NCBI GenBank assembly: GCA_964396965.1
Contig: CAYNGD010000001.1
Span: 67,596 to 131,595 of the forward strand
From: an uncultured Dehalococcoidales bacterium
Lineage (GTDB): Bacteria; Chloroflexota; Dehalococcoidia; Dehalococcoidales; BS750m-G39
Reading direction: 5' to 3'
DNA: 64,000 nt
Shown here: positions 10,301 to 55,868 of the stretch, piece after piece
Layout of the letters: every line of letters begins with the position of its first letter
Numbering within the stretch: position 1 is the stretch's first letter
Program-made: the position numbers and the translations under genes
The notes under the pieces: model-generated
The model's database searches: none
What the model was told of the DNA's origin: nothing
Seen by the model: the letters and a program-made list of their open reading frames with translations, nothing else

Positions 10301-10345
10301 AGCACGGGTAGTTAGACAGGCAAAACTCTTTAAGTTAGAGAATTT

Positions 10346-10415
10346 AGAGAGGGGCGAAGCCCCTCTTATAGAAAATTCCCCCTTCCCTAGTAAGGGAAGG
10401 GGGTAAGGGGGATAG
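10346..10415 (+). repeat. REP-like double-hairpin intergenic element, copy 1
   Basis: Hairpin 1 is AGAGGGGC-GAA-GCCCCTCT. Hairpin 2 is CCCCTTCCCT-AGTA-AGGGAAGGGG, followed by GTAAGGGGGATAG. About 80 percent identical to the reverse complement of 22290-22361. Confidence 0.8.
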
Positions 10416-10574
10416 GTTGGCAGGAGTGGGAAAAGAGGTTAGTCTGACTGGTAACTAAAATGTATAAAAAACGTTCCTTTTACGGGGGAAAGAAACTCAT
10501 CCTTACCAGCCCCTCTCCGTCACCGGGGAGGGGATAAGCCGCTTTGACCAAATATTTCTCCCGAGGAGGAACCA

Positions 10575-12106: not shown

Positions 12107-13360
12107 GTGACCTTAGTCGAGAAAATACTGGCCGAGCACAGCAATAACAAAGAGGTCAGCCCTGGCGAGTTCATCAACGTCAGGGTGGACCTGGTCATGG
12201 CCAACGATATCACCGCCCCCATCGCCATAAAGGAGTTCAAGCGGCTGGGGGTGGAGAGGGTCTTTGACCCCAATAAGGTGGCCATGGTGCCCGACCACTT
12301 CGTGCCCAACAAGGACATCGCCTCCGCCGAGCAGGCCAAGATGATGCGGGAGTTTGCCGACGAGCAGGGTATAATCTACTTCGAGGTGGGCGAGATGGGC
12401 ATCGAGCACGTTCTCCTGCCCGAGCGGGGGCTGGTGCTGCCGGGGGAGGTGGTCATCGGGGCCGACTCCCACACCTGCACCTACGGGGCTCTGGGCGCCT
12501 TCGCCACCGGCATGGGCTCGACCGATATCGCCGCCGCCATGGCTACCGGCGACATCTGGATGAAGGTTCCACCCACCATCAGGTTCATCTACCACGGCAA
12601 TCCGGGGGAGTGGGTGGGGGGTAAAGACCTTATCCTCTACACCATCGGCCAGATCGGCGTTGACGGCGCCCTTTATGCAGCCATGGAGTTTACCGGCAAG
12701 GCTATCGAAGCCCTCTCCATGGACGGGCGGTTCACCATGGCCAACATGGCCATCGAGGCCGGGGCCAAGGCCGGCATCTTCGGTGTGGACAACAAGACCC
12801 AGCTTTATGTAAAATCAAGGGCGGACCGCCCCTACCTGGTCTATGAGCCGGACAGTGACGCCAAATACGCCAAAGTCATCGAGTATGACGTCTCCGGCCT
12901 GGAGCCTCAGGTCGCCCTGCCCCACTCCCCGGCCAACATCAGGCCGGTGAGCCAGGTGGGCAACATCGAAATCAACCAGGCGGTCATCGGCAGTTGCACC
13001 AACGGCCGCATTGAGGATTTACGAACTGCCGCCCAGCTATTGAAAGGCAGAAAAGTGCACCCGGGGGTGCGCTGCATCATCATCCCCGGCTCGCAGCAGG
13101 TCTATCTCGACGCCCTGGCCGAGGGGATGCTGGGGGTATTTATCCGGGCCGGGGCGGTGGTCAGCACCCCCACCTGCGGCCCCTGCCTGGGCGGGCATAT
13201 GGGCGTGCTCGCCGACGGTGAAAAGTGCGTCTCCACCACCAACCGCAACTTCGTCGGCAGGATGGGCAGCACTAAATCAAAGGTCTACCTGGCCAACCCG
13301 GCGGTGGCCGCCGCCAGCGCCATAATGGGCAGAATCGCCAGCCCGGAGGAGATTCGATAG
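12107..13360 (+). CDS. leuC: 3-isopropylmalate dehydratase large subunit
   Basis: 417 aa, GTG start 2 nt after the leuA stop. Aconitase-family motifs [34 protein letters not shown]. Confidence 0.95.
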
Positions 13361-13402
13361 GGTGAAGGGGTGTTGAGAAGTCGTTGATGGAGGGGTGATG
13401 CT

Positions 13403-14608
13403 ATGGGATGGCTTATCTTCATTGGCATCATACTTGCCATTTGGTTTATCACTTGGCTTAGTAATAGGTTATCTAACCTGCGGAAGATGGCCAAGAAGTA
13501 TGTTGAGTGGAAACCAAAATTAGACAATTTAGACAACTATAACAGGGAATTGGAATTAAAAGAGTCTCAATTAAAGGAGCAGGAAGTAGCTATTGATACG
13601 CTAGTCAAAGAAAAAACTCAAGGCTTCCCTTGGTTAGTGAAAGTATACGACGACTATTTTTCTTTGCAGGATGGTAAGTTGGCAAATGCGCTCATAATCA
13701 AACCACATCCAGCACTAAGAGCGTCTGAGACTGTGAGACAAATTAGTAAGGAACGCCGTGAAGCTGAGAAGGCGGCGAGGTTAGCTAATTACATCCTAGA
13801 TTACTGTCGTTATCTGGCTCCTTGGTTAGATGAATATATAGGCTTGGAAACTGAGGAGTTAGATGAAATCGTAAAAGAGATACATTCAGCGTGGGAGAAA
13901 AAAGAGAAAGAGTTTGACGAGGAAGTAAGGCGACATTACGGGCCTAAATATGAAGGACTTACGCCAACCGAGAAATTGCAGAAAAAACTAGACTGGTATT
14001 GGGGAAAGCCTAACAAATCCAATTGGCAAATAGGAAGGGATTACGAAAGATATATCGGGTACTTATATGAGATAAAAGGCTGGAATGTTTACTACCATGG
14101 TAAGAAAGGATTTGAAGACTTGGGACGGGACTTGATTTGCAAAAAAGCTAATGCTGTAGAGATAATCCAGTGTAAGCGCTGGGCGCAAGAGAAAATAATC
14201 CATGAAAAGCACATCTATTATTTATTTGGCACTACGGTTGAATATTTTATTGAAAACTTCGGAGGCGAGGATTTACAATTAGCCCTATTTCCTAGCCTTG
14301 TTCGAAAAAGAAATGTAATCCCTAAGTTGGTTACCACGATTGATGTTTCCCCGAAAGCTGAACAAGTAGCGGAAGTGCTTGGGGTGGTAATAGAAAAAGT
14401 ACCATCGGAGCCATATCCCTCGGTAAAATGCAATGTAGCCAGAAGGACAGGTGAGAAAATCTTTCACCTTCCTTTCGACCAGCAATATGATACGATATTG
14501 ATTGAAGAAGAAAGACTAGAGTGTTACGTTGAAACCGTGGCGGAGGGAGAAGCTTTAGGATTTCGGCATGCTTACCGATGGAAGGGTGAGGTTGAAAAGG
14601 GCAATTAA
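13403..14608 (+). CDS. Membrane-anchored coiled-coil protein with an Mrr-type PD-(D/E)xK nuclease-like domain and a C-terminal sunset-like domain. Low-GC insert inside leuCD.
   Basis: 401 aa. N-terminal TM helix GWLIFIGIILAIWFITWL, a Lys/Glu-rich coiled coil, a nuclease-like core GFEDLGRDLICKKANAVEIIQCKRW, and a C-terminal VKCNVARRTGEKIFHLPFDQQYD...AEGEALGFRHAYRW. GC is about 30-40 percent against about 60-67 percent in the flanks (hand counts). Confidence 0.75.
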   Translation: MGWLIFIGIILAIWFITWLSNRLSNLRKMAKKYVEWKPKLDNLDNYNRELELKESQLKEQEVAIDTLVKEKTQGFPWLVKVYDDYFSLQDGKLANALIIKPHPALRASETVRQISKERREAEKAARLANYILDYCRYLAPWLDEYIGLETEELDEIVKEIHSAWEKKEKEFDEEVRRHYGPKYEGLTPTEKLQKKLDWYWGKPNKSNWQIGRDYERYIGYLYEIKGWNVYYHGKKGFEDLGRDLICKKANAVEIIQCKRWAQEKIIHEKHIYYLFGTTVEYFIENFGGEDLQLALFPSLVRKRNVIPKLVTTIDVSPKAEQVAEVLGVVIEKVPSEPYPSVKCNVARRTGEKIFHLPFDQQYDTILIEEERLECYVETVAEGEALGFRHAYRWKGEVEKGN

Positions 14609-14691
14609 ACACGGGTGGGGAAAAGGGCTTTAGCCCTACAATAAGGGCGGCGGGTGGGAAAAGATATAAAATGGGTGGAGGGGTTCTATAA

Positions 14692-15192
14692 ATGCTAAAA
14701 GGCAAAGTGCATAAATACGGGGCAAACGTAGATACCGATGCTATCATACCGGCGCGCTACCTGAATATTTCCGACCCGGCGGAGCTGGCCAAACACTGCA
14801 TGGAGGATATCGACCCGGACTTCGTTAAAAGAGTCAAGCCGGGGGACATAATGATGGCCACCACCAACTTCGGCTGCGGCTCGTCGCGGGAGCACGCCCC
14901 CATAGCTATCAAGGCGGCGGGGATTTCCTGTATAATAGCCAAGAGCTTCGCCCGCATCTTCTTCCGCAACGCCATAAACATCGGCCTGCCCCTGCTGGAG
15001 TGCGACCAGGCGGTGGATGAGACCGGGGCCGGCGATACCCTCGAGGTTGACCTGTCCAATGGAAAGATAAAGAACCTAACCCGCGGCAGCGAGTTCGAGG
15101 CTAAAGCCTACCCCGATTTCATGGCCGAGCTTACCGCCGCCGGCGGTCTGGTTGAGTACACCAAAAAGAGACTAGAAAGCAGGAGAGTCTAG
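14692..15192 (+). CDS. leuD: 3-isopropylmalate dehydratase small subunit
   Basis: 166 aa. [27 protein letters not shown]. Confidence 0.95.
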
Positions 15193-26645: not shown

Positions 26646-29600
26646 CTACCCCAGCCCGGCGATTATCAGCTCTATCTTGGTGATGTCAAGAGCGTTGACC
26701 ACGCCATCACCGTTGGCGTCGGCGCCGGAGGTCTCGACGTCCATACCGCCGATAATCCGCTCCAACTTGGTTATATCCAGGGCATTGACCACACCATCAC
26801 CGTTGGCGTCGCCCGGTGTCGCCGAGCTAATTTCCACCGAATCGCCCGCCCAGCTCGCCTCTATCTCCCCGGCCTGATTGTCGGAGAGAACGCCGTTGGA
26901 CAGGGTTATGGCGCTGCTGTCACCCTCGGAACCGACGACATGAAAGTGCAGTACTGATAGATAGCCGGAGCCGCTTACCCCGGCCACCCCGGGGACGTTC
27001 TGGATTACCCGGTACGTCCCCGAGCTTATCTCGTTGTACATGTCAACCGGCACTGTGGTCGAGCCTATCAGCCCCGGAGTTACCTCGTCCAGGCGCAGCA
27101 CCGTCGGGTCGAAGGTAACGTCGTAGTTGCCGGAGTCAAAGTCAGTTACCTCGGTGATATCGACGGCGGCAGTGAAGTCGCTGTCGTGAGCAGCGGTAGC
27201 CGGTGCGTCGATGCTGACGCTGACTCCGGGCTGGGCGCCGCTGACCTCCAGCGTCACCGGCACGGTGACCGAAGCCTCGTCGGGATCGTTGCTGGCGACG
27301 ATTATCTCGGCGTTATAGGTGCCGGCGCTGAGGCCGGTGGTATCTACGGTAACTGTTATCGGCTCGGAACCACCCGCCGCCACCGTGCCCGAAGTGGGGC
27401 TCTCGCTCAGCCAGGAGCAGTCCGGGTTAGTCACGCTGAAGCTGGCACTTGCCTCATCAAGCAGGGTCTGTCCCGAGACATAGACATCGGCAGTGATGGT
27501 ATAATCACCCAGCACCGCCTCCGCCGGCAGGCTGTAGGTGAAATTACAGCTGCTCACCTCGCCCGCCGCCACGGTTATCGCTGAGCTGTCCTCAAACACC
27601 GCTGCCCCCTCCGGGTCCGCCACATTAACGGTAACGGTGCCGTCGGTCAGGTCGGCATCACCGCCGTTGCCCACGTCAACATAGATGGTCACGTCTTGCT
27701 CGGCCAGGTAGCTGTCGCTGTCGGTAAAGAGGGTCACAATGCTCACCTCGGGAGAGCCGATTATGGCGCCGGTAGTCCCGTAATAGAAGATTACGTTCTG
27801 GGACTGGCCGGCGGAGAGAGTACCCAGCTCCCAGTACATGCCCACCGCGGTATCCGAGGTTATTGACTGGCCTGAGGTTATGGAATAGGCGAAGGGAGTA
27901 TAATAGATATCCGGCCAGTAGGCGAACTGCACCTTATAAGGCTTGTTGTTGGCGTCAAAGGTACAGTTGGAGGTCAGCGTTGGAGCGGACAGGCTGTCGG
28001 TGGCCTGCCAGTAGTTAAATACCGGATTATTGTACTCCTGCTCGGTGGTGACATCGCCCACCCCCGGCACGATAAAGGGAGCACCGTCGTTGTAGGCCAG
28101 CATGGTGTCGAGGAGAAAGCGTAGCTCTACATCGTGGCCGGCGCTGTCGTTATTGGTAATAGTAGCCTGGTATTTGGTGGTATTCGGCTGCAGGGTCAGC
28201 CTCAGTGAGACGCCGACATCAGTCGGCAGCGACCACTGCGTTATGATGCTGTCGCCGTCTATAGTGGGAGACTGGGTCACGTAGCTGTCCATCACCGAGA
28301 AATCCTGGTAGTAATCGCTGCCGTCCAGCCGCACCGTCATGTAGGAGCTCCAGGGATAGGGATAGCCGTAGAGCAGCAGCATCTCATCGGCGGTGGCCTC
28401 GGTATAGCGGCCAATGCCGTTGTAGTCGGGGAGGTCCTCAACCGAAATGCCCATGTCATAGTCAGTGTTGACCAGGTTCAGGGTACGGCTCTTCTCAGAG
28501 CTCTTCTCTTTTTTAAGCGCCGACGGGTTGCCCTCGGTGCCGTTCGGCCCTGAATCGCCGCCTGCCTCCTGGTCGCTGATGTCATAGCTGAGCTCGCCGC
28601 TGCCGTCGTTGCCGATGGTCAGGGTGTAGTCTTCGATAGTATCGGAGGGCAGGGTCATCTCAAAGCTGGCCGGAGAGACGGTGATATCGGCCACACCGGG
28701 GGTGGTGAAGAGGATGTCATAGAGGAAGGCGCCCCAGTGGGTATCGGTGCTGAAGAGGACGTCAGTCTCGTAGTCGGAGTAGTAGTTGTCCGAAGTCTCC
28801 GGGTAGTAGATGGATATGCCGTGAGAGCCAGCCATCGAGGCGGTGTGGCCCTCGGCGATAACGGCGTTGGTTACCGCCGTCATCACGTCAGCGGCAGCGT
28901 CCCTCACCGCCTGGCTGATGGTGGCATCCTGGTTTACCAGCTGGGCGAAGTGGTAGAGGTCAATGTAGTAGTAATAGTAGTACTCCTGCGCTGAACTCCT
29001 GGCCGTTTCAATGGCGTCCCAGTCGCCGGGGGCGTTGATCATGGCCTGGGCAAAGCTGTCAACCGCCGTCGACAACGCCTCCATATAGTCCAGGTTCACC
29101 GCCGACTGGGTTATGTCCCAGGAAGAGCTGTAGGAGTCCATGTAGTCATTGACTATCTGAGTGCCCAGCTCGGCGGGTGTCATCGCCGGGTCGGCGGCCA
29201 GAGCACCGAGGGTGGCGGCGTAGTCCCAGCCGTCGCCGGGCTCGGTCTCCTCCGAACCTATAGTTATGTCAACCATGGGAGAGTCAGCGCTGCCCATCAC
29301 CTGATAGGCCACCTCGGCCATCTGCATCAGGCAGGCGTCAAAGCCGAGGATATCCAGCGTCTGGCCGGTGCTGGCGTTGGCCTCGTCCAGGGCGCTGCGC
29401 AGTTCAGTCATGGTCAGCTCGTCGCCGGACTGGTCATCAATGCAGACGGACTTCACTGAATTGCCGCTCTCCTCCCTCTCCCGCCAGCCGCTGCCGTGGT
29501 TCCAGAGCACCAGGGCGTAGTGCCGGGCGGGGTAGCTGGTCACCGCCCACTCGATAAAGCTGGTAAGCACCGCCGGGTCGCCCATATTGACCTCGCCCAG

Positions 29601-31775
29601 GTCTGCCACCACCGGGGAGTTGATGATCGAAGTGTCAGCGTCCTGGGTGACGTAGAAGCGCTTGGCCCCGGTCCAGTTGCCGTTGCTGGTGTCATCGGAA
29701 GAGGCCTGTTCGGCGCGGTCCATCTGGACCACAATCTTGACGTTATCGGTAGAGCCGACGGTCTCCATCTCATTGAAATCGTCAATACCAGCGCTCTCCA
29801 GGTTGTTATCGGCGTCAAGATAGACCATAAACAGCCAGTCCGCCTCATAGTCGGCGGCGGTGGCAGCTATCGCCGCCTGTACATCAATCAGGCCGTAGCC
29901 GTCAATATCATCGTTGCTATCCGCCGAGCTGGCCGTTGACTGGAGCAGGCTTCTAACATCGGCGGGGTGTCCCTTCAGTTCCGGGTCGGCCTCGAGTAAC
30001 AGCGCCGCCGCCCCGGCGGCAATGGGAGAGGCCATACTGGTACCCTGCATCACGTAGTAGTCCGCCGGGCCGGAGCCGTTCAGGTCCAGGCCGTCGTTGT
30101 CAATAAAATAGGCGCTGGCACCGCCAGGCCAGGGATAGACATCCTGGTCGCGCGCCGAGATTATGGCGCTGCCCGGCGCCACAATATTCGGCTTCTGGGG
30201 TGCGCCGTCATCCACCCTCGGCCCGCGGCTGCTGAAATAGGCCATGGTGCCCACCGTCAGCTCGGGGTTGACAAAGTGATAGCTGGTCCCGTCATAGGCC
30301 GTCCAGTTCTTGCGGCTGGTGTAGGCGCCGACGGCGATGGCATCCTCGGCATCAGCCGGTGAACTAAGGGTGTAGAAGGGGTCGGGGCTGTGAAACTCCA
30401 CCGAAGCCCCGCCGCTGGCAATGCCATCAAAGTAGATGTGGAAGAACTGCTGATTATCCGAGTTGTTGGTCACCTTAAGGTAGTAGGTCGAGCTTCCCGA
30501 AGGCAGGTAGTAGTACCAGCCGGCTTCCGGGCCGTAGCCGGAAAGCTCATGCTCGGTGCCCTTCCAGCTCTCCTCCTGGTCACCCGCCCAGCTATTACCC
30601 AGAGCCGTCTGGGCGGAATCATAATAGGTCAGGGTCAGGTCGTTGCTCTCGGCCAGGCCGTCGAACCAGACCAGGTTGAAGCCCAGACCGGCATTACCGC
30701 CGGTGGAGCCAGTAACATCGACCTGGATAAAGCCGGTGGTGCTGTGAGCGCTGGCCGTGCCCGAGTAGTGCTCGCCAGCATCGGCATCATTACCCGCCGA
30801 GATAAAGACCACCGCCCCCTGGCTGAAGGCGTAGTCCACCGCCTGGGCGGTCTGTCTGGTGCCGTCATGGTAGTCCCCCCAGCCGCCGTAGCTCATGGTG
30901 ATGATATCGGCATCATAGGTATCCACCGCCGCCTTGATGGCGTTGGTCATGGCATCAAGCGAGGCGCTGCCGGTGGTATCGTTGCCAATCTTGAGAAAGA
31001 CAAGGTCGGCACCCGGGGCCATACCTTTATACTCACTGGCGGCCCCGGCGGACTGTGTTCCCCGCCCCAGCGCCGAGCCGGTGACATGGGTGCCGTGGCC
31101 GGTGACGCTGTTGGCGATGGTGTCGTCCAGCACCGGCCAGTTTGAGTAGTCCTTGCTGGCTACCGGCGCCGGGATATCGGGGTGGGAGGTGTCCAGGCCG
31201 GAATCGAGCACGGCTATCCTGACGCCCTCGCCGGTATAGCCCGAGCCCCAGACGTCGTCGGCGTTGATGGCGGCGGCGGCCAGGTCATTCTGGGGCTCCA
31301 GCATCTGCTCGGCGGTATCCAGCCGGGCGATATAGTCTTTAGTCGCTAATTCGCCGAGCCTATCTACCGGCATCTCGGCCACGATAAAGCCGGTGGGGAA
31401 CTCCCCTACCGGCGGTATCCAGGAGTCGGGGTAAGGGGTAACGCCGAGCGCCTCAAGCTCATTTAGCTGCTTGGCCGTCGGCTCCTGTGCCATGTGGATA
31501 AACACCCGCTGCGTCTCCAAGTCTCTAGTTTTCATACCTTTGGCCCGCATCACGCTCATATCAGCGGCAGCCAGCGGAAGCTGCTGGCAGCGCAGCTTGG
31601 CCTCCACCTGCAGAGCCAGCAGTGAGCTCACCTTGGCCTCTGGCTCAGGCTTAGAAAATGAAATCGCCTGAGGTTCATTTGGGGGTGGGGAAAGAGCCTG
31701 AACACCGGGCATAGTACCAAGGGTGAGTGCCAATAAAAGGGAAAAAACACCCAAAATCTTTAAGGGGGTTTTCAT
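26646..31775 (-). CDS. Giant secreted multidomain protease: propeptide, S8 subtilase, C11 clostripain-like domain, beta-sandwich modules, cohesin-like module, dockerin
   Basis: 1709 aa. AAGGAGG RBS and signal peptide MKTPLKILGVFSLLLALTLGTMPGVQA. S8 triad at D191 (AVLDSG), H227 (GHGTH), S580 (GTSMASP). C11 dyad at H760 (LWNHGSGW), C815 (GFDACLM). C-terminal cohesin-like and dockerin segments. Confidence 0.9.
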   Translation of the reverse strand: MKTPLKILGVFSLLLALTLGTMPGVQALSPPPNEPQAISFSKPEPEAKVSSLLALQVEAKLRCQQLPLAAADMSVMRAKGMKTRDLETQRVFIHMAQEPTAKQLNELEALGVTPYPDSWIPPVGEFPTGFIVAEMPVDRLGELATKDYIARLDTAEQMLEPQNDLAAAAINADDVWGSGYTGEGVRIAVLDSGLDTSHPDIPAPVASKDYSNWPVLDDTIANSVTGHGTHVTGSALGRGTQSAGAASEYKGMAPGADLVFLKIGNDTTGSASLDAMTNAIKAAVDTYDADIITMSYGGWGDYHDGTRQTAQAVDYAFSQGAVVFISAGNDADAGEHYSGTASAHSTTGFIQVDVTGSTGGNAGLGFNLVWFDGLAESNDLTLTYYDSAQTALGNSWAGDQEESWKGTEHELSGYGPEAGWYYYLPSGSSTYYLKVTNNSDNQQFFHIYFDGIASGGASVEFHSPDPFYTLSSPADAEDAIAVGAYTSRKNWTAYDGTSYHFVNPELTVGTMAYFSSRGPRVDDGAPQKPNIVAPGSAIISARDQDVYPWPGGASAYFIDNDGLDLNGSGPADYYVMQGTSMASPIAAGAAALLLEADPELKGHPADVRSLLQSTASSADSNDDIDGYGLIDVQAAIAATAADYEADWLFMVYLDADNNLESAGIDDFNEMETVGSTDNVKIVVQMDRAEQASSDDTSNGNWTGAKRFYVTQDADTSIINSPVVADLGEVNMGDPAVLTSFIEWAVTSYPARHYALVLWNHGSGWREREESGNSVKSVCIDDQSGDELTMTELRSALDEANASTGQTLDILGFDACLMQMAEVAYQVMGSADSPMVDITIGSEETEPGDGWDYAATLGALAADPAMTPAELGTQIVNDYMDSYSSSWDITQSAVNLDYMEALSTAVDSFAQAMINAPGDWDAIETARSSAQEYYYYYYIDLYHFAQLVNQDATISQAVRDAAADVMTAVTNAVIAEGHTASMAGSHGISIYYPETSDNYYSDYETDVLFSTDTHWGAFLYDILFTTPGVADITVSPASFEMTLPSDTIEDYTLTIGNDGSGELSYDISDQEAGGDSGPNGTEGNPSALKKEKSSEKSRTLNLVNTDYDMGISVEDLPDYNGIGRYTEATADEMLLLYGYPYPWSSYMTVRLDGSDYYQDFSVMDSYVTQSPTIDGDSIITQWSLPTDVGVSLRLTLQPNTTKYQATITNNDSAGHDVELRFLLDTMLAYNDGAPFIVPGVGDVTTEQEYNNPVFNYWQATDSLSAPTLTSNCTFDANNKPYKVQFAYWPDIYYTPFAYSITSGQSITSDTAVGMYWELGTLSAGQSQNVIFYYGTTGAIIGSPEVSIVTLFTDSDSYLAEQDVTIYVDVGNGGDADLTDGTVTVNVADPEGAAVFEDSSAITVAAGEVSSCNFTYSLPAEAVLGDYTITADVYVSGQTLLDEASASFSVTNPDCSWLSESPTSGTVAAGGSEPITVTVDTTGLSAGTYNAEIIVASNDPDEASVTVPVTLEVSGAQPGVSVSIDAPATAAHDSDFTAAVDITEVTDFDSGNYDVTFDPTVLRLDEVTPGLIGSTTVPVDMYNEISSGTYRVIQNVPGVAGVSGSGYLSVLHFHVVGSEGDSSAITLSNGVLSDNQAGEIEASWAGDSVEISSATPGDANGDGVVNALDITKLERIIGGMDVETSGADANGDGVVNALDITKIELIIAGLG
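26649..26813 (-). other. Dockerin (two Ca-binding repeats)
   Basis: GDANGDGVVNALDITKLERIIGG...ADANGDGVVNALDITKIELIIAGLG. This is a duplicated D-x-N-x-D-G-x-x-N-x-x-D loop plus helix. Confidence 0.8.
26814..27227 (-). other. Cohesin-like module inside the protease
   Basis: 138 aa (VSVSIDAPATAAHDSDFTAAVDITEVTDFDSGNYDVTFDPTVLRL...YLSVLHFHVVGSEGDSSAITLSNGVLSD). It is a paralog of the three modules in 36596-39313. Confidence 0.65.
28895..29843 (-). other. Clostripain-like (peptidase C11) domain of the 1709-aa protein
   Basis: WLFMVYLDADNNLE, then H760 (29496-29498) in WNHGSGW and C815 (29331-29333) in FDACLM. The C-terminal domain boundary is approximate. Confidence 0.7.
29856..31262 (-). other. 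Subtilase (peptidase S8) domain of the 1709-aa protein
   Basis: Catalytic codons are D191 at 31203-31205, H227 at 31095-31097 and S580 at 30036-30038 (checked against the DNA). A large insert of about 250 aa lies between the oxyanion Asn and Ser. Confidence 0.85.
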
Positions 31776-41077: not shown

Positions 41078-44000
41078 CTAGTCAAGGTCGGGCACTATCG
41101 GCGTGATTTCAAATCCCGCCAGGGTAGCCGCATTCGACATGTAGACCCAGTAGCCAAGACCGGCGTACATGGTGTTAGTACCAGAACCGGTAGTCTCATC
41201 GACGGAGTATGTCCAGCTCGTTCCGGTGTTGCCGTACATATCTGTCTGAGCGGCATTACCCGATGGGCTAACCACCAGGGAGTAACCGGGCAGGTTGTCC
41301 GCTGTCCGGTAAACCGAAGCTACTACCTGCTTGTCATACTTGCCATCGGAGTCAAGGGCAGCCATACTAATCAGGTTCCACCCCGCATTAAGGTCTTTGC
41401 TCGGGGTAGTGAAGGCAGCGGCGTCAAACTTGAGCTGTACGTAGGTGGCCGTGCTCATCTTGACGTAGACGGCATCGCACGGGCTGAGTACGTAGCCGGT
41501 GGTTATCTGCTGCCAGCCGTTATTGTAGTAGTAGCCGATGGTCATGCCGGAAGGAATCAGCTCATCAATGGCATCGGCGGAGGAGATGAGCTTAACCGGT
41601 GTGGACAGGGTATTCCAGCCCGCAACCAGGTACATCGTGCTCGTTTGGTAGGAGGCATCGTCAGCTACCACGTCTGCCAGCGGCTTGTGCAGCCACGGGT
41701 AGTAGAAGACCCGGTCGGTGATGGTATCACCGGTGCCGTTGGGGTTGGACTTGGTAACGGTGGCACCAGTCAGAGCGGTGTAGTTGGGACCAGAGGCATC
41801 GCCGTAGTAGTTGTACCAGCAGTTAATCTCGGTAACGGCGATAGTGTCGGTTGAATCTACCTTAATGGCATAACCAGCGTTGTCGTAGATGTCATTGTAC
41901 TGGATATAGTGGCAGCCGGTATCCGGCTGACGCTCGATGCGAACCGCATAGCTGGTGCTGGTGCCGGCGCACCCGGTGATGGTGTTCTTCTTGATGGTTA
42001 TCGGGCCGTCGTGGGCCCCCTCAACCTTTATGGCGTAGCTGTAAGCGCCGGTGATAGTGTTACCGATTATGCTCAGCCCGGTACTGCTTATGTAGTCAGC
42101 GATGTCAATAGCACTGTAGCCATTGGTTATGGTGTTGTTGGTGATTTTACCAGTGGCGTCGTTGGTGCTATTGCCGCCAAAGGTGATACCGTACTGGCCA
42201 CAGTTGGTCAGCGTGTTGCCGTCTATGGTCACCCCGCTTATAGCCGAGGTACCACCGAACGCCTGACCGTCAATAATGATGCAGCCAGACTTGGCCCCAC
42301 TGCCCATATCGGGCCAGGTGGTGACACAGCTATTGAAGGTGTTGTTGCTGATGGTGGCCGAGGTTATGGTATCACTGTTGGTGAACCAGACCACACCCTC
42401 CTGAGCTGAACTGTCATCCGGCTCTATGTTATTGAAGACGCAGTTCTGCACGGTGACGTAGTCGTTACCGGCGTTGCGAATAGCCATGTCAATGTCAACC
42501 GTTACCCTCAGCCGCTGGAAGGTAAGGTTCTCAATGACTATCGGGTTGGCGGCACTGCCGTCGGTGCCCACCTCCAGCGCCTTGTCAATCTCGGCGGTGT
42601 TCCTTATGGTGGTGGACGAGGCGCCGTTGACCGAGGTCAAGGTTATCTTCTCGTTCACATTGATGTAGCTATCGCTATCCACCTCATAGATGCCATCACC
42701 CAGCTTCACCGTATCGCCAGCTATCGCCGCATCTATGGCGCTGTTGATATAGTCGGCGCCATATTTTTGGGTAGTAATGGTGGTACTACCAGCAACTTCG
42801 GCCACAGGTGAGGTAGATGTGGCAGCATAGGTATTTACCAGATTACCACTGGCATCATACAGCGAGACCGCCGGGGCCACCGTAATCGTCCAGGTGGCCG
42901 AGGTATAGCCGGTTGCCGAGAAGGTCAGGGTGTAAGTCCCGGCGGCGGTATCCTTGTAAAACACCTGCTGAGCAGCGGTAGCCGGACTTGCTGTGCTCAC
43001 GGTGATACTGGTTATCGTGGTATAAGCGCCTGAGCCAGGAGTGGCACTGGCATTCTTATAGAACGTACCAGAAGCTGAAGATGAACTTGGGGTCACCGTC
43101 ACCGAACTGGCCGAAGCCTTGGCATTGCCATACTCGTCGCCCAGGGTTATGTAGAGGTAGCTGCTGAGCATGTTAATCATAGTAGCGTCATCGGAATAGT
43201 AGGTGCTCGATAACCCAACCTCACCGTTGCAGACCATCAGCTGGGTAGCCGAGCCCGCCGAGATGGTGTGGGCGGAATCAGCCTTGACCCACTTGCCGTC
43301 CTGGCTGGTGCGCAACATACAGTAGTAGTCATCAGTAGACGCTCTCGTCGGATTGGTGATGCCGGCAGCGGAGAGTACCTTCACGTACAGGGTCTCGCTG
43401 GCCGCAGTGATAGTCTCCGAGGTGGTGGCAGTTATCGTCCTCTTGTCGGTATTAACCACGGGTGCCGAGCTGGAGGCGGTATAGGTGCTGCCATCATCGC
43501 TAAACTGGACGTTGCTGGCGGATATGGAGCCGGGAAGAGTTGTTCCCACCGGGAACATGATGGTTACCGTGTCCGTATCCGCGGTAAGGTTGGTGGCGCA
43601 GGTTGCACTTAAGCTGTACTGTGCAGCCGCTCCAGCCGTAGCCGGGCTGACAGTGGTGGAAAGTGACGAGCAGGTGCTGTCGCCCAGGGCAAAGGCACTG
43701 GACAGTACCGGGGTGGTATCCTTGGTGGTGGACACAGATACCTTGTAGGTGGAACCCTCGGTGCTGGCTGAGGTAATGTTGGTGGAAGTAATTCTCAGCC
43801 AGACATCAGTGCCGGCAGCATAGTCAAAGGGCACCAGCACCTTAACCCGGTAGCCACCGACGATGGCATTAGACGTACTTCTATACCAGTTGGCGCTAGT
43901 CACCAGGGAAGTCCCGTAGTCGGTGCTGAACTCAAGGTCAGCCGCCGCTACCGAACTGCCTACGGTAAAGGCATATGCCGAACCAGCACCCCCCATGGCT

Positions 44001-44251
44001 GCCGTACCATCAGGGAAGGTCACCGTAACGTAGTCCACCCCCCGCTCCAGGGCAGTGGTAGGCGTAAAGTGTATATAGTACTCACCGGCTGTGCTGCTGG
44101 TGGCATTTTTAGCCGAGGTAAAAGGAAACTCCACCCAGACATTGGTCACCGCGGTGGCGGCCTGGGCTACCGGCGCCAGTACCAGCACTAGGGTAGCTAC
44201 CAGGAACAGGGCCAGCCCGATACGCCCCAAAAGCTTAAACTTTCCTTTCAT
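41078..44251 (-). CDS. Large secreted right-handed beta-helix protein (putative S-layer or wall protein), paralog 2
   Basis: 1057 aa. Signal peptide MKGKFKLLGRIGLALFLVATLVLVLAPVAQA. PbH1-type repeats (ISNNTFNSC, IDGNTLTNCGQYGITFGG, ITNNTITNGYSAIDI, IIGNTITGAYSYAIKVEG). GGAGGAG RBS 12 nt upstream. Confidence 0.85.
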   Translation of the reverse strand: MKGKFKLLGRIGLALFLVATLVLVLAPVAQAATAVTNVWVEFPFTSAKNATSSTAGEYYIHFTPTTALERGVDYVTVTFPDGTAAMGGAGSAYAFTVGSSVAAADLEFSTDYGTSLVTSANWYRSTSNAIVGGYRVKVLVPFDYAAGTDVWLRITSTNITSASTEGSTYKVSVSTTKDTTPVLSSAFALGDSTCSSLSTTVSPATAGAAAQYSLSATCATNLTADTDTVTIMFPVGTTLPGSISASNVQFSDDGSTYTASSSAPVVNTDKRTITATTSETITAASETLYVKVLSAAGITNPTRASTDDYYCMLRTSQDGKWVKADSAHTISAGSATQLMVCNGEVGLSSTYYSDDATMINMLSSYLYITLGDEYGNAKASASSVTVTPSSSSASGTFYKNASATPGSGAYTTITSITVSTASPATAAQQVFYKDTAAGTYTLTFSATGYTSATWTITVAPAVSLYDASGNLVNTYAATSTSPVAEVAGSTTITTQKYGADYINSAIDAAIAGDTVKLGDGIYEVDSDSYINVNEKITLTSVNGASSTTIRNTAEIDKALEVGTDGSAANPIVIENLTFQRLRVTVDIDMAIRNAGNDYVTVQNCVFNNIEPDDSSAQEGVVWFTNSDTITSATISNNTFNSCVTTWPDMGSGAKSGCIIIDGQAFGGTSAISGVTIDGNTLTNCGQYGITFGGNSTNDATGKITNNTITNGYSAIDIADYISSTGLSIIGNTITGAYSYAIKVEGAHDGPITIKKNTITGCAGTSTSYAVRIERQPDTGCHYIQYNDIYDNAGYAIKVDSTDTIAVTEINCWYNYYGDASGPNYTALTGATVTKSNPNGTGDTITDRVFYYPWLHKPLADVVADDASYQTSTMYLVAGWNTLSTPVKLISSADAIDELIPSGMTIGYYYNNGWQQITTGYVLSPCDAVYVKMSTATYVQLKFDAAAFTTPSKDLNAGWNLISMAALDSDGKYDKQVVASVYRTADNLPGYSLVVSPSGNAAQTDMYGNTGTSWTYSVDETTGSGTNTMYAGLGYWVYMSNAATLAGFEITPIVPDLD

Positions 44252-49723: not shown

Positions 49724-50392
49724 ATGGAGATAAGAACAGCCTTTCACAGGAAGCTGCAGGAGATACACAACGATGTCCTGTTCATGGGTAGTATGGTGGA
49801 AAAGGCAATCCTCTCGTCGGTCAAAGCACTGAAAAACCGAGACCTGGGACTGGCCGAGCAGGTAATCGCTGACGACGAGAATATCAATGCCAAGAGATTT
49901 GAAATAGAGAACAAGTGCATCCAGCTTATTGTCACCCAGCAGCCGATGGCCGGTGACCTGCGGGTCATTATGGCGGTAGCTAACGTGATAACCGAGCTCG
50001 AGAGAATCGGCGATTACGCCGAGGGTATCGCCAAGATCGTCATCATGATTGGTGACGAGGCGCCTCTAAAACCCCTCATCGATGTTCCCCGTATGGCAGA
50101 AAAGACAGTGGATATGCTGCACCGCAGCCTGGAGGCTTTTGTTAATCATGACGCCGATGCCGCACGGCGGATAGTAACCGAGGATGACGAAGTGGACAAC
50201 CTTTACAGCCAGGTCTTTAGAGAACTACTCACCTTCATGGCAGAAGATCCCAAGACAATCACTCGAGCGACTCGTCTCATCTGGGTTTCTCACAATCTGG
50301 AACGTGCCGCCGACCGCGTCACCAATATCTGCGAGCGGGTGGTCTTTACCGTCACCGGGGAAATGGATGAGATAGGCGCCTCCAAATACTAA
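49724..50392 (+). CDS. phoU: Phosphate signalling complex protein PhoU
   Basis: 222 aa. Two PhoU repeats (ERIGDYAEGIAK and LERAADRVTNICE). Confidence 0.92.
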   Translation: MEIRTAFHRKLQEIHNDVLFMGSMVEKAILSSVKALKNRDLGLAEQVIADDENINAKRFEIENKCIQLIVTQQPMAGDLRVIMAVANVITELERIGDYAEGIAKIVIMIGDEAPLKPLIDVPRMAEKTVDMLHRSLEAFVNHDADAARRIVTEDDEVDNLYSQVFRELLTFMAEDPKTITRATRLIWVSHNLERAADRVTNICERVVFTVTGEMDEIGASKY

Positions 50393-50429
50393 ATTCACCG
50401 CCTTGAAACGTAGTGGCCAGCCCGCCAGG

Positions 50430-50495
50430 CCTTAACCAGGATTTAAACAAAAAATAACCATCCCCTAACCGGCCCTTAACACAGCCTTAAACCAT
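50430..50495 (+). promoter_or_regulatory. Second Pho-box-like array: six 11-bp-phased TTAAC/TAACC repeats downstream of phoU
   Basis: CCTTAACCAGG ATTTAAACAAA AAATAACCATC CCCTAACCGGC CCTTAACACAG CCTTAAACCAT. It shares the 15-mer AACACAGCCTTAAAC with the pstS site. Confidence 0.55.
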
Positions 50496-50545
50496 TGATG
50501 TTATTCTGAAGATGGAGCATTAGTTGGAGGGAATGACATCGACCT

Positions 50546-50800
50546 ATGAATCGCACTATGGAAACAGAGACTAACCATCGAAAGCAAAGACAAACTGCGA
50601 CATATAGAAAGTATGAGGTCAGCTCTAAAAGCTGCGAGGTTAAATTAGGCGAGTTTGTTTCGCCGGAAACAGTCATCGGCAGGCACTTCGCCAGCGGCCA
50701 GGCGGTCCAGGCCGGTATCTTCGGACAGATTGCCACCATCTATTTCAACCCGATGCATGATTCGCTACTGATACTGGCTGTGTCCGGAAGCAGCAACTAA
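50546..50800 (+). CDS. Hypothetical 84-aa protein downstream of the second Pho-box array
   Basis: The call rests on the ORF alone. GGAGGG lies 14-16 nt upstream, which is long spacing. I recognise no motif. An 87-aa antisense ORF overlaps it. Confidence 0.3.
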   Translation: MNRTMETETNHRKQRQTATYRKYEVSSKSCEVKLGEFVSPETVIGRHFASGQAVQAGIFGQIATIYFNPMHDSLLILAVSGSSN

Positions 50801-51195
50801 AAGACAACTCGGCCATGACAGCCAGTCTCCAGAGAATAGCCCTATTGATTAGTGGCTAAGTCTCCTCCCCAAACGCTTCAGGCTTAGTGAATGTCTTCTG
50901 GTTTGTGACCAGAACCCCCCGCCAGCAAGGCTATATTCAAGCGCCGCATAAGAAAGATACTGAGAACTGCGCCAAATTATGCCAAAATAACAGCAGCCAT
51001 GCCCAAAGGAAATAGAAAGTTTGTCTGGTCTGGCGCCATCCTTCTGGCCATCATAGTGATAGGCACGAGGGACCATTATATCGTACGCGGCCTCGGCTCG
51101 GTGGAATAGCAGGCTCCGCCGCTTTAAGTACATACCAGAGGGTAGTAGAATGGAGTTAGTAAAGAAATAAGCTGAAACCGGTGGAGGAGAGAACC

Positions 51196-51828
51196 ATGAA
51201 AACAGTGGGTAAACTGATTATTTTCGAACATCTGAAAGAAATTGTTGACCCAGAACATACCTCTTTAGTCCTCTGGGACTGTCAAAACGGACTGGTCAAC
51301 AACATCTTCAATCGTGATGACTACCTACTAAACCTGAAAACGCTGCTTACCGCCGCCCGCCGTCAAAAAATTCCTGTAATCTATACCAAGATTACGCCGT
51401 TGCCCACCGGCTACCAGTCTGCCTGGAGTATTTACCAAGGTATGAAGCGTTTCAATGTGGACGACCCATCAAAAATCCCCGTTTTCATGAAGCCAGGCAG
51501 TCCCGAAGCTGAAATTAGCACGGAGTTGGCCCCCAACGAGGGCGAGATAGTTCTTAACAAGCATACAGCCAACATCTTCTTCGGCACCAACTTTGAGCAG
51601 TTGATGCGTTTCCATGGCGTGCAGACTATCCTCTTTACTGGCATTGCCACCGAATACGGCGTGGAGCACAGTGCCCGTGAGGCTTCAATCCGCGGTTTCT
51701 ATACTATCGTCGTCTCAGACTGTGTCTCGTCGAGCAACAAGACAGCGCACGAAATGGCACTCAAAATCATGCCTCGTATGTGTCTGGTGCTACCCTCGAA
51801 GGGTATTATCAAGGAATGGGCGGTATAG
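51196..51828 (+). CDS. Isochorismatase-family cysteine hydrolase
   Basis: I trimmed the track ORF to the ATG at 51196 (GGAGGAG upstream). LVLWDCQNG (Asp), a conserved Lys region, and a Cys in VVSDCVSS. Confidence 0.8.
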   Translation: MKTVGKLIIFEHLKEIVDPEHTSLVLWDCQNGLVNNIFNRDDYLLNLKTLLTAARRQKIPVIYTKITPLPTGYQSAWSIYQGMKRFNVDDPSKIPVFMKPGSPEAEISTELAPNEGEIVLNKHTANIFFGTNFEQLMRFHGVQTILFTGIATEYGVEHSAREASIRGFYTIVVSDCVSSSNKTAHEMALKIMPRMCLVLPSKGIIKEWAV

Positions 51829-51987
51829 CTTTTCCGCAGCTCAAGTTTCCACCGGTGGCTGCTCGTTGACATGCTCCATAGCTGTGATTATAATCAGAAT
51901 GTCAAAACCTCGGGATGTGGGCGACGAAGCGATACGCTACTCCCCCCAAAAATTGTGGCATCACCGTGGTTTGCTTGAAGCTAAAGC

Positions 51988-52030
51988 GGGCCGCTAGCTC
52001 AACTGGCAGAGCAGCTGACTCTTAATCAGG
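51988..52030 (+). pseudogene. Truncated tRNA-Lys(CUU): 5' half only (acceptor 5' strand, D-arm, anticodon arm)
   Basis: GGGCCGC-TA-GCTC-AACTGGCA-GAGC-A-GCTGA-CTCTTAA-TCAGg. The anticodon CTT is at 52021-52023. No variable loop, T-arm or acceptor 3' strand follows, and the last stem base is mismatched. Confidence 0.75.
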
Positions 52031-52049
52031 GAATGAGGGAAATTCTGGT

Positions 52050-52173
52050 TGACAAAAGTGCAATTTTCAATGACATTTTGTCATCTTTAGATACGAAGCT
52101 GTCCAAAATGCTGTCCAATAAGTGCTGTCCTGTCTGGGGGATGCTGACCTAAATGTTAGCAAAATGTTAGCAA
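52050..52173 (+). repeat. Cluster of short repeats next to the tRNA fragment (att/arm-site-like)
   Basis: Inverted repeat TGACAAAA (52050-52057) / TTTTGTCA (52076-52083). GCTGTCC occurs three times (52098, 52110, 52124). A perfect tandem AATGTTAGCAA x2 lies at 52152-52173. Confidence 0.7.
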
Positions 52174-52656
52174 AAATGCGTACCCTTTACTCCCCGGCTG
52201 CCCTGTGGTAGCCTGTGCGGGGTGGTCTGGCGCCATGGTCAGGATAAAGAAGTATCGCCTGCCGGCAACAGGAGCACAGGAGTATGTCTGCCAGTGCCCG
52301 CGCAGCCTGACCCTTGAGACCCTGTGGTTCAGGGGTGGTGTCCTGGTCCCGACAAAGAAGTTCAGCCAGGGGGAAGACGGCAGCATCTATCATGATTGTA
52401 ACCGGGGCTCAGCTAGGCCGTGCCGACTGTTCTCCACGTGGAAGGTAAAGCCCCGGATGTTGTAACCGTAAAAAGGTGTATGCCATACACCTTTGTTGTC
52501 ATATCTAAAGCCAATGACCAAGAGTAAACGGCAAAAAGAACTGTCTAAAGATAGATTGAGAGTCTGGATTTAACCACCACCGCCGAGCTAAGAAAGACTT
52601 GCATTTTACGCCGTGCTGGAATAATCTGTATTAGGAGCAGCAGTTAGGAGATTGCA

Positions 52657-53289
52657 TTGGGAGAAGGGAAAGCGAAACCAAGGATTTCACTTTTAGCCAA
52701 CGATATCTTTGTAAAAGCGCCCTGTGTCATGTGTGGCAAGTCTTTTAAAACAGGAGAGATTTTGCCTACGCTTTACGAAGAAGATGGGCTTGGCGGCTAT
52801 GTTTGCGATGACTGTGCTTATGAACCACAGAACTACGCCGCCAAACTAAGAGCGCAAGCCGAGGACTTGGAAAATGAAGCTCAAGGCTTGGCGGCGTGGC
52901 TTAGGAGCTTAGCTGACTCTGGTATCGAGCCACCGGATGCTGACTATAGACTGGAATTGGAGAGCCTTATCGCCGTAGGAGACTCTAAGGAGACCGAGAA
53001 GTTAAATGCTGCGGAGCAGGAAAAGGACCTGCCTGCGGAGAATTTGAAGGGCAAGAAGTTTCTAGGCCTTACCTGGGACGGAGGTGGCAAAAAGTTAGTT
53101 CTCCTCTTCGAGGGGGACAGGATTCTGTGGATTGCACCGGCTAGGAAAGGGGAAGAGGGTGAGGAGCTTGTTGTCGATACAGATGCCGCGTTGATCCTTG
53201 GAGAGGGCCCCCGCGGTGATGAGCTTATTGACCACACCAAGGGATACTTCGGGCCTGCCCCGGGGACTGCATTGCACAAGTGGAGTTAG
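52657..53289 (+). CDS. Hypothetical protein with an N-terminal CxxC...CxxC zinc-ribbon-like motif
   Basis: 210 aa, TTG start. CVMCGKSF...CDDCAY. Confidence 0.5.
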   Translation: MGEGKAKPRISLLANDIFVKAPCVMCGKSFKTGEILPTLYEEDGLGGYVCDDCAYEPQNYAAKLRAQAEDLENEAQGLAAWLRSLADSGIEPPDADYRLELESLIAVGDSKETEKLNAAEQEKDLPAENLKGKKFLGLTWDGGGKKLVLLFEGDRILWIAPARKGEEGEELVVDTDAALILGEGPRGDELIDHTKGYFGPAPGTALHKWS

Positions 53290-53359
53290 TCTGAGCAGTG
53301 GAACGGCCTAATCTACTTCAGCGTTACCTGCCTTACCCTTAACCCAATCCCTCTTTCCC

Positions 53360-53685
53360 TATCGGGGATTCTAGCGGAAGGAATGTCCCATAGCCCCCAA
53401 CAATGTCAAAGCTAGTTGGTCCCATACACCATAGCTGGCCGTTGCCATTATGTCCCATATGCTCGCCTCCAGTTGTTAACGGTCTGGAAACTGGACCGCG
53501 GTAGATTTTCATCCAAAATGCAGCAGCTGGAATGTGAGTCGAGAATAAGTGTAACTGGCGGAAGCTGAACTGATTTTATTTTTTCGTCTTATCCTCCACT
53601 AAGCGCCGTTGGAACCAGTGGGAAGATGATTATATCTAGCACTGCTACCAAATTCTGGGCAGATAGATTGATTGGCGTGTAACCT
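53360..53685 (+). repeat. Long non-coding direct repeat, copy A (about 326 bp)
   Basis: Aligns block by block with 55183-55665 (for example ACACCATAGCTGGCCGTTGCCATTATGTCCCATATGCTCGCCTCCAGTTGTTAACGGTCTGG). No conserved reading frame on either strand. Confidence 0.8.
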
Positions 53686-53750
53686 AATCCTTAAACAACC
53701 TCTCCCCCGGGCGGGGTGAGAATGGTAGGTCTGCGAAACAGAGGAAGATT

Positions 53751-54770: not shown

Positions 54771-55182
54771 CACCGCCTATAACGCTTTTTTCTTTTTAAC
54801 GCTGGGAGTCCGTTTAAGCCTTGATTTTCTGCCTGGTTGAAGACCAGCGTATCAACCCCCAAAAATAATGGTTTTAGGGGGCTTAAGCGGGCATTAGCGG
54901 GCATAAAACCTTAATCAGCACCGAAAAAGCTGACATCCGACAGCTAGCCATTACTTCTTTATCTCGAGATTTTTTACGCTGTTTCATCATCTATATTCTA
55001 CCAGTTTTTCTACTATTCTTCACCCCTGATGTCACCTGGGTGATGAATTAACTTGATAGTGGGTGGTAAATTAAGTCGGTAAACGACAAAAGGTTGGTGA
55101 TTTACAGGTTTTTTTACCCGCCTTTGAATAAAGTTTCTGGCATAAATGAAATAAATACCCTGAGACTTTTTGATGGAACTTT

Positions 55183-55665: not shown

Positions 55666-55868
55666 AAATGCCATGATAACCCCTTTCTTCAAGCCAGCAA
55701 CCTCAGCTTTAGCAGACCTCCCGCAAAGGGTGGTGACTACCGAATGGATGGCTTACCTGCTGCACAAAGCGATGTTACGTTCAGTGGGTTACAAACTGGC
55801 TAATGGGTGAAGAAGAGAACACCTACACACCGCGCATATACCGAATTCAACCATGACCATCTTACTCT

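Follow-up and report, generated by a model that had tools for sequence, protein, structure and literature searches.

A predicted membrane-tethered Mrr-family nuclease gene between leuC and leuD in an uncultured Dehalococcoidales bacterium

The leuC-leuD locus

The window analysed here is a 64,000-nucleotide stretch of DNA from an uncultured Dehalococcoidales bacterium (contig CAYNGD010000001.1, positions 67,596 to 131,595; assembly GCA_964396965.1), and the subject of this work is an open reading frame (ORF) of 401 amino acids (aa) within it. The ORF is the sole gene separating leuC from leuD and lies on the same strand as both. We favour, with moderate confidence, the reading that it encodes a solitary, membrane-tethered, defence-type nuclease of the Mrr family, which is expressed by operon read-through and has long resided in a hotspot for accessory genes between leuC and leuD (hereafter the leu slot). 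An initial annotation of this DNA had described leuC and leuD as separated by 1.3 kb holding one 401-aa ORF, and these coordinates were reproduced (Table 1), with spacers of 42 bp upstream and 83 bp downstream of the ORF. The low GC content counted by hand in that annotation was also recovered, being 0.38-0.44 in the ORF and 0.60-0.64 in the flanks. The GC content at third codon positions (GC3) is 0.41, compared with 0.84 in leuC and 0.74 in leuD, and is the minimum among the 40 window ORFs of at least 150 aa (median 0.73, sd 0.105).

Promoter-like and terminator-like sites show no excess over chance, and no integrase or transposase was seen among the genes within about 10 kb of it, which agrees with the earlier remark that no promoter, integrase or transposase was visible. 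Since the gene has neither its own promoter nor a mobility gene, expression by read-through from the operon is likely, and the earlier proposal that it rides on the operon transcript is retained in this form. The window contains no tRNA genes and no Rfam matches, so a known leader RNA is absent. The link to amino-acid starvation that the initial annotation suggested is not supported.

Table 1. Coordinates of features in the window and of related elements at other loci (prefix L).
Feature	Position	Strand	Evidence
leuC, 3-isopropylmalate dehydratase large subunit, upstream border of cargo slot	12107-13360	+	Pfam Aconitase E=3.8e-108; GC3 0.84
Upstream spacer, decayed remnant of an ATL/MGMT-like gene, whose last 12 codons it represents; holds the Shine-Dalgarno sequence (SD) of the nuclease gene (13388-13396)	13361-13402	+	Alignment with L010 and L092 junctions
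Membrane-tethered Mrr-family nuclease (predicted), 401 aa	13403-14608	+	ORF, Pfam, AlphaFold2 (AF2), Foldseek; dN/dS 0.06-0.10
N-terminal transmembrane (TM) helix (about aa 3-21), predicted N-out / C-in	13409-13465	+	19-residue hydrophobicity maximum; homology to TM segment of Zn-ribbon partner
Charged coiled-coil stalk (aa 22-72)	13466-13618	+	AF2, single unbroken helix, residues 3-72
All-helical central domain (aa 77-205; AF2 helical region 77-224), conserved	13631-14017	+	AF2 helices
Mrr-type PD-(D/E)xK nuclease core (aa 207-332)	14021-14398	+	Pfam, invariance, Foldseek
Putative catalytic residue E215	14045-14047		
Putative catalytic residue D243	14129-14131		
Putative catalytic residue Q256	14168-14170		
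Putative catalytic residue K258	14174-14176		
C-terminal sunset-like domain (aa 339-395), KCN...GEKIFHLPFDQQYD...EALGFRHAYRW	14417-14587	+	NCBIfam NF051437, weak
Downstream spacer, decayed REP/MITE-like two-hairpin repeat; residual hairpin 14625-14636; leuD SD 14676-14684	14609-14691	+	
leuD, small subunit, downstream border of cargo slot	14692-15192	+	Pfam Aconitase_C E=1.4e-19
Isochorismatase in second low-GC block	51181-51828		
RNase_T/ExoX-like exonuclease in second low-GC block	55869-56681	-	
Metallo-beta-lactamase-fold protein in second low-GC block	57286-58200	-	
DUF72 protein in second low-GC block	58266-59171	-	
Loci with the nuclease gene in the leu slot	L001, L003, L004, L010, L092, L093, L095, L097/98, L099, L104, L105, L113, L119, L152, L153, L154		
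REP/MITE-like repeat sites	L001:998; L004:2137 and 7284; L010:3404; L011:797; L020:11602; L098:1890; L101:6755; L109:4469; L123:3864		

Architecture of the protein

The N-terminal TM helix and the charged coiled coil named in the initial annotation were both recovered. The 19-residue Kyte-Doolittle mean peaks at residues 1-19 (2.29), which form the sole strongly hydrophobic segment, and they are followed at residues 22-40 by seven K/R against one D/E, so an N-out / C-in anchor is predicted. The AF2 model of the 401-aa protein, which was built from 78 homologs, has a predicted local distance difference test (pLDDT) score of 75.5 overall and 80-90 in the nuclease core. The stalk is hypervariable and carries indels among relatives; between L004 and L152 the nucleotide identity is 52-63% there and 94-97% in the flanks. 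Wholesale allele replacement between these two loci was considered but is not supported, as only the coiled-coil segment is hypervariable. The central helical domain has invariant residues that include R119, P140, W141, L142, L196 and K205, and no recurrent Pfam domain was found in it across the 78 family members scanned.

The Mrr-type PD-(D/E)xK core proposed earlier is upheld by three kinds of evidence. Pfam Mrr_cat (PF04471) matches aa 211-278 of the window protein with 22.9 bits, above the gathering cut-off of 21. The putative catalytic residues E215, D243, Q256 and K258 are invariant across 78 sequences, and in the Pfam scan of the 78 members Mrr_cat_2 was found in 62 and Mrr_cat in 39 (best 2.6e-9), with no other recurrent domain. 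Furthermore, Foldseek searches with the AF2 core returned EndoMS/NucS (5gkj) as the top match (E=1.2e-4), followed by MspJI (4f0p), AF1548 (1y88), Cdn1 and AspBHI (4oc8); the probability was 1.00 for EndoMS, MspJI, AF1548 and AspBHI, and the fold is of the restriction-endonuclease-like alpha/beta type. On the basis of this modelled fold and the invariant residues, the window protein is predicted to be a metal-dependent DNA nuclease whose catalytic residues are intact. Neither an Mrr_N winged-helix nor an SRA-type reader domain was matched in it by Pfam at E<=1, and searches of PDB sequences with the whole protein and with a C-terminal profile gave nothing useful.

A sunset-like C-terminus had also been proposed, and this part of the initial annotation stands at the level of the family but not of the single sequence. 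The NF051437 sunset hidden Markov model (HMM) matches 30 of 30 family C-termini at E<=1 (best 1.1e-7), whereas the window C-terminus scores 14.3 bits (E=0.031), under the curated cut-off of 27 bits. The assignment is thus weakly supported. The domain is small and beta-rich in the AF2 model of the whole protein, and it was also modelled alone (pLDDT 84). A PDB fold search with the separate model found no significant neighbour; N-Ada bound to DNA (1u8b) was a non-significant lead (query-normalised TM-score, TMq, 0.41; E=5). It may be that the sunset-like domain binds DNA. Our literature search found no account of the sunset domain or of leuC-leuD inserts.

More than 4,800 proteins matched the 401-aa protein in a word-indexed search, and an exhaustive search of 50%-identity clusters gave 1,738 at E<1e-3 and 762 at E<1e-30, aligned over about aa 45-396. 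Many family members are split, so that an ORF of 100-125 aa abuts or overlaps a nuclease ORF that lacks the TM segment. The small partner consists of a TM helix, a coiled coil and a Zn ribbon (Zn_ribbon_Top1, 45.6 bits). Because the TM segment of the window protein is homologous to that of the partner (BLASTP E=2e-12), the one-gene form probably arose by fusion with loss of the Zn ribbon. The family is large, uncharacterised and accessory, and is absent from PADLOC, Pfam and NCBIfam as a full-length family.

Occupants of the leu slot

The leu slot is occupied by the nuclease gene in no fewer than 16 related contigs of Dehalococcoidia (Table 1), and in most leu-slot loci the gene lies directly 3' of an ATL/MGMT-like gene (hereafter ATL-like). 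The initial annotation had pictured a horizontally acquired single-gene cassette wedged into an otherwise canonical operon; given this shared placement, a recent insertion into a canonical leuCD junction of this genome is not supported. It had also advised a synteny check for intact junctions, and the outcome was divided: five close relatives do have an empty canonical junction of 11-12 bp, but the gene and its place are common to the contigs listed. The co-cargo in nuclease-bearing slots varies and comprises PNPOx-like, GNAT, GIY-YIG, HicB-like and Zn-ribbon genes; a GIY-YIG gene shares the slot in L004 and L152, and L105 and L111 have a HicB-like gene on the downstream side. L013 and L016 have the ATL-like gene but no nuclease gene, and the reverse holds for the window, L092, L153 and L154. 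By comparing species-representative loci, leuC-leuD gaps of at least 150 bp were found in 12 of 21 Chloroflexota and in 5 of 50 other taxa (p=6e-5). The contents of the gaps in the representative loci were PNPOx-like, ATL-like, DsrE, GNAT, RidA and DUF3052 genes. On this comparison of sequences, this clade has a hotspot for accessory cargo genes at the leuC-leuD junction.

Several slots have a peculiar content. In L011 (metagenome-assembled genome contig JAUWGI010000008.1), which has the closest LeuD (88%), an unrelated Mrr_cat nuclease gene occupies the slot (L011:3-746; Mrr_cat 37 bits; GC3 0.29 against 0.61-0.72 in the host) and is followed by a REP-like module and by leuD at 847. In L111 (5995-7934) the order is ilvB-ilvN-ilvC-leuA, a Zn-ribbon ORF, the nuclease gene, an 8-codon leuD relic, a REP module, a HicB-like gene, leuB and cimA, with leuC and leuD missing; either leuCD lie elsewhere in the genome or this organism is auxotrophic for leucine. 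In the leu-slot nuclease gene of L119 (2271-3478) a frameshift immediately ahead of the catalytic QxK motif leaves two ORFs, of 252 and 156 aa, which points to a pseudogene or else to an error of assembly. The leuC-leuD gaps of L015 (2787-3776) and L033 (513-1451), about 1.0-1.2 kb long, contain no sense ORF and only mutually homologous antisense ORFs. Other operon junctions also hold small extra genes in L001, L003, L004 and L152 taken together: an MgtC-like gene (leuA-leuC), ORFs of 66-114 aa (ilvC-leuA), a Usp gene (ilvN-ilvC) and a 116-aa ORF (leuD-leuB). The ilvC-leuA gap of the window itself is 274 bp (10301-10574).

Junctions and spacers

The 3' end of the ATL-like gene in L010 can be aligned with the 42-bp upstream spacer. 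The ATL-like gene matches PF01035 at 25.6 bits. The spacer translates to ...VEKSLMEG-stop, the ATL C-terminus being ...VKDFEKALVEV-stop, with one 1-nt frameshift between them. The junction taaTGCT-ATG is common to the window, L010 and L092, and L092 retains 15 codons of the relic where the window retains 12. Since the spacer aligns in this way, the window's leuC-nuclease junction arose by deletion of an ATL-like gene, of which the upstream SD 9-mer is the last codons.

The 9-mer TGGAGGGGT, which the initial annotation had noted at both junctions as the SD of the following gene, is present as described, with exact matches in the window only at 13388-13396 and 14676-14684 (18 of 100 shuffles give at least two matches). 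It was rejected as a target-site duplication, however, because its two copies belong to the ATL relic and to the end of a repetitive extragenic palindromic (REP) element, and the repetition is missing from L010 and L092; having separate origins, they are not an insertion scar. No long target duplication (>30 bp) was found in the window, where the only repeat of this kind is the 9-mer, and relatives do not conserve it.

A two-hairpin module of L010, L011, L092, L094, L095, L004 and L111 can be aligned with the 83-bp downstream spacer. This module, which resembles REP elements or miniature inverted-repeat transposable elements (MITEs), is repeated, in either orientation, at many further intergenic sites, and is found also 5' of leuD in L011. 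The folding energy is -13.2 kcal/mol (z=+0.66) for the window copy and -40.7 kcal/mol (z=-3.05) for that of L010. The duplication of CGGGTGGG(G)AAAAG reported previously was confirmed as direct repeats at 14612-14625 and 14651-14663 of this spacer. The stop codon of the nuclease gene and the start of leuD are overlapping (TAATG) in L003 and L098. An integron cassette was rejected because the 3' spacer has no R''/R' GTTRRRY cores (by inspection, with no attC covariance model) and the flanks are leu genes.

The REP/MITE-like repeat consists of a GGGGC..GCCCC hairpin, a CCCTCTCCCC..GGGGAGAGGG hairpin and the end GGGTGAGGGGTT, and it is scattered through Dehalococcoidia loci (Table 1). It may supply homology for the shuffling of cargo.

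Selection, base composition and trees

The ratio of nonsynonymous to synonymous substitution rates (dN/dS) of the nuclease gene is equal to that of leuA, leuC, leuD and leuB (0.06-0.10), which indicates strong purifying selection. The window and L010 show a synonymous divergence (dS) of 0.45 in the nuclease gene and 0.6 in the flanks; thus, the arrangement predates the split of these two lineages, or nearly so. The dS ratios differ in both directions among pairs.

Leu-slot nuclease genes have a GC3 of 0.24-0.42 irrespective of the GC3 of the host (0.49-0.84), while the GC3 of the ATL-like gene (0.53-0.79) follows the host. The horizontally acquired cassette of the initial annotation is borne out as to its host-foreign composition, but the gene is a long-standing resident of the slot and not a recent arrival. 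Relatives with the gene in the same place and with native composition had been expected for an ancient gene; the place is indeed shared, but the composition is foreign in every leu-slot host. On the window branch, synonymous substitutions from A/T to G/C (W->S) amount, per site, to only 0.11 in the insert as against 0.73 in leuC (p=3e-9), and the rates in the opposite direction (S->W) are alike. A family-wide need for AT-rich coding was rejected, since the GC3 is 0.57 in L121 and 0.68 in L127. Low GC could persist through recurrent import of alleles, through weaker biased gene conversion of a gene that is polymorphic for presence and absence, or through selection on codon content.

The trees of the nuclease gene and of leuC agree in broad outline. 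The two conflict over L001, which groups with L003 in the leuC tree (86%) and with the window and L010 in the insert tree (87%). Leu copies are not monophyletic, and a six-member clade from other loci nests within them in 94% of bootstraps.

Relatives at other loci

Bootstrapping pairs L094 with L092 as sisters in 96.5% of replicates, yet L094 is not a leu locus; its genes are an aminotransferase gene, the nuclease gene and a 102-aa gene. The L094 nuclease gene retains the REP relic of the leu slot and lies between the two copies of a 75-bp direct repeat (L094:1105-1181 and 2586-2657), which consists of an intrinsic terminator and a consensus TTGACA-N17-TATAAT promoter; there is no empty site for comparison. 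This copy moved out of the leu slot, and the direction is clear for L094 only. By analogy, the arrangement looks like an insertion in which a long stretch of the target was duplicated.

The surroundings of further relatives are those of mobile elements and defence islands. In L009 the gene lies in a prophage lysogeny module, adjoining a PDC-M11A gene (681 bits) and an integrase gene; in L110 it adjoins PDC-M41A and DUF5131 genes, plus an integrase gene; in L006 it is followed by HNH_5 and Fic/PDC-S23 genes; in L130 it adjoins an HNH gene and an N6_N4 methylase-Mrr_cat fusion; and in L100 and L102 it lies beside tRNA 3' ends. Relatives are encoded by Hymenobacter plasmids and by 125 IMG/VR viral contigs. 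In 31 of 61 long viral contigs the gene is at most 4 kb from a contig end (13 expected, p=9e-7), and in 28 of these 31 the end is on the downstream side. The downstream neighbour of the viral relatives is an integrase gene, of the tyrosine or serine type, in 7 of 10 cases. The anti-phage or anti-plasmid role suggested in the initial annotation is therefore plausible, in that relatives adjoin prophage integrases and PADLOC defence-candidate genes.

Other features of the window

A second low-GC block at 50000-59200 (GC 0.45-0.53; ORF GC3 0.45-0.60 against the window median of 0.73) contains the four genes listed in Table 1 and may be another acquired region. Two long ORFs lie on the minus strand, one of 1057 aa (41078-44251) with no Pfam match at E<=1e-3 and one of 1709 aa (26646-31775).

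Interpretation

We hypothesize that the nuclease gene would have lodged in the leuC-leuD slot in one Dehalococcoidia sub-lineage and would afterwards have been inherited mostly by vertical descent, with some exchange of alleles and occasional escapes to other loci. In the lineage of the window, the neighbouring ATL-like gene was later lost to give leuC-nuclease-leuD. The gene would be transcribed by read-through of the operon and translated from its own SD. The product is predicted to insert into the membrane with its N-terminus out and its C-terminus in, which would place the nuclease at the inner face, and the stalk could mediate dimerisation. DNA would be bound by the sunset-like domain, the helical domain or both, and cleavage is predicted, from fold and invariance, to occur at E215/D243/Q256/K258.

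A defence function is suggested by the family's association with prophages and defence islands, and several results weigh against it. PADLOC-DB v2.0.0, against which the initial annotation had recommended a scan, did not recognise the window protein (0 families at E<=1), and NCBIfam gave no full-length match to it. None of the INPHARED phage genomes contains a relative. No methyltransferase or other partner gene adjoins the nuclease gene in the window. The gene was present in 0 of the 80 GTDB species-representative loci retrieved via LeuD, which implies a low prevalence. How the chromosome would be spared is a matter of speculation: either only modified or foreign DNA is cut, or the tether restricts access. 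Moreover, tight integration into the operon, strong purifying selection and a long association with the ATL-like gene, of the DNA-damage-binding kind, would fit a domesticated role in DNA repair or processing too.

Such a housekeeping nuclease, which would act on alkylated DNA together with the ATL-like protein, for example, or on membrane-proximal DNA, and would use the leu operon for constitutive expression, is an unlikely alternative. The position directly after the ATL-like gene in most leu-slot loci, a dN/dS as low as in the biosynthetic neighbours, the translational coupling to leuD in some relatives and the broad agreement with the leuC tree all speak for it. The distribution is patchy, however, as seen from the representative loci and the five empty junctions, and the ATL-like and nuclease genes each occur without the other. 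The GC3 of the ATL-like gene tracks the host while that of the nuclease gene never does, and the relatives are cargo of prophages, plasmids and islands.

It is less probable that the protein is an abortive-infection or toxin effector, which would be inactive at the membrane until a phage or envelope-stress signal led to indiscriminate degradation of cell and phage DNA. The membrane tether, the lack of a partner that would confer specificity for sequence or modification, and the HicB-like antitoxin gene downstream in L105 and L111 are in keeping with this, as is the AT-rich, rare-codon make-up, which could limit the level of a dangerous protein. The E. coli Mrr itself is stress-activated. However, the protein has no recognisable sensor domain, HicB is found at two loci only and HicA at none, and by sequence alone such an effector is indistinguishable from direct restriction.

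A selfish nuclease, either homing-like and cutting empty leuC-leuD junctions or addictive and killing cells that lose it, with a wedge between essential genes that impedes clean loss, is quite improbable. Its composition is foreign in every host, the conflict between the nuclease and leuC trees suggests allele exchange at a fixed site, a GIY-YIG gene shares the slot at two loci, and restriction genes are known as mobile, selfish units (PMC2853133). Empty junctions of 11-12 bp exist, and the occupied sites differ in junctions, flanks and co-cargo. Furthermore, the slot houses many unrelated non-nuclease genes, the relatives are spread over so many loci that no single target exists, a homing enzyme would not be expected to have a membrane anchor, and an antitoxin or methylase partner is missing. 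A recent horizontal insertion of a single-gene cassette into a canonical junction of this genome, for which the GC3 contrast with leuC and the absence of a GC-ward drift on the window branch (as for a late-arriving allele) would speak, is very improbable, because the upstream spacer is a relic of the ATL-like gene that still lies between leuC and the nuclease gene in relatives, the downstream REP relic is resident in the slot and present also with a different nuclease gene, and dS to L010 is of the order found in the flanks (0.45 and 0.6).

The membrane-tethered defence-type nuclease thus remains our preferred reading. In a bolder form, which we regard as rather doubtful, the family would be a new and widespread one-gene module of anti-phage or anti-plasmid immunity, existing also as a two-gene form with the TM-Zn-ribbon partner, in which the tethered nuclease tells foreign from self DNA by location and cuts entering DNA while the nucleoid is out of reach, and in which, in Dehalococcoidia, placement in an essential biosynthetic operon guarantees expression and hinders loss. 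If active, the family would add a membrane-tethered class of nucleases to bacterial immunity and would give the sunset domain its first functional context. It is a testable candidate, with at least 760 clusters, a clear architecture, invariant catalytic residues and guilt by association with prophage ends and defence-candidate genes. In the small-genome Dehalococcoidia, a spacer within a core amino-acid operon can house accessory and defence genes over long periods. Moreover, the retention of a foreign composition at a dS of about 0.5-1, while the adjacent gene shifts GC-ward, is useful for studies of amelioration, biased gene conversion and selection on codon content.

Comparison with known systems

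The likeness to NucS/EndoMS (5gkj) is at the level of the fold only (12% identity over 131 aligned columns), and the window protein has neither the N-terminal domain of NucS nor a PCNA/clamp motif. Viral relatives resemble the integrase-proximal defence or moron genes of prophages in that they lie directly upstream of integrase genes at prophage ends, whereas the window copy is outside a prophage. The leu slot shows the varied occupancy of defence hotspots flanked by core genes, but it is an intra-operon spacer and holds small metabolic genes too.

Restriction genes are described as moving by insertion with long target duplication and by allelic substitution at one locus, and as forming low-GC inserts (Furuta, Abe and Kobayashi, 2010; PMC2853133). 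The 75-bp direct repeat of L094 and the different Mrr_cat gene at the same locus in L011 match this description, and here too the GC of the insert is under that of the host everywhere and a dedicated recombinase gene is lacking. The window differs in having no long target duplication, in flanks that consist of a gene relic and a REP relic, and in a site within a biosynthetic operon.

The nearest validated analogue is Epona, a single-gene anti-phage system from cassettes of Vibrio chromosomal integrons (Darracq et al., bioRxiv 10.1101/2024.07.02.601686), with which the comparison is by description only. Epona likewise combines a membrane segment with Mrr_cat in a single protein and is a small promoterless accessory gene under an upstream promoter. 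However, its membrane segment is a holin-like domain with two TM segments, and its description mentions no coiled coil, helical or sunset domain; furthermore, it resides in an integron with attC sites, and no attC is evident at the window nuclease gene.

The Mrr/Type IV enzymes (PF04471; MspJI, AspBHI, AF1548) share with the window protein the PD-(D/E)xK core and the E...D...(Q/E)xK motif, and are likewise solitary nucleases with no cognate methylase. In contrast to canonical members, the window protein lacks an Mrr_N winged-helix or SRA-like reader and has instead a TM helix, a coiled coil, a novel helical domain and a sunset-like C-terminus. It is a solitary nuclease of the Mrr family, and both its membrane-tethered architecture and the intra-operon hotspot in which its gene lies are unusual.

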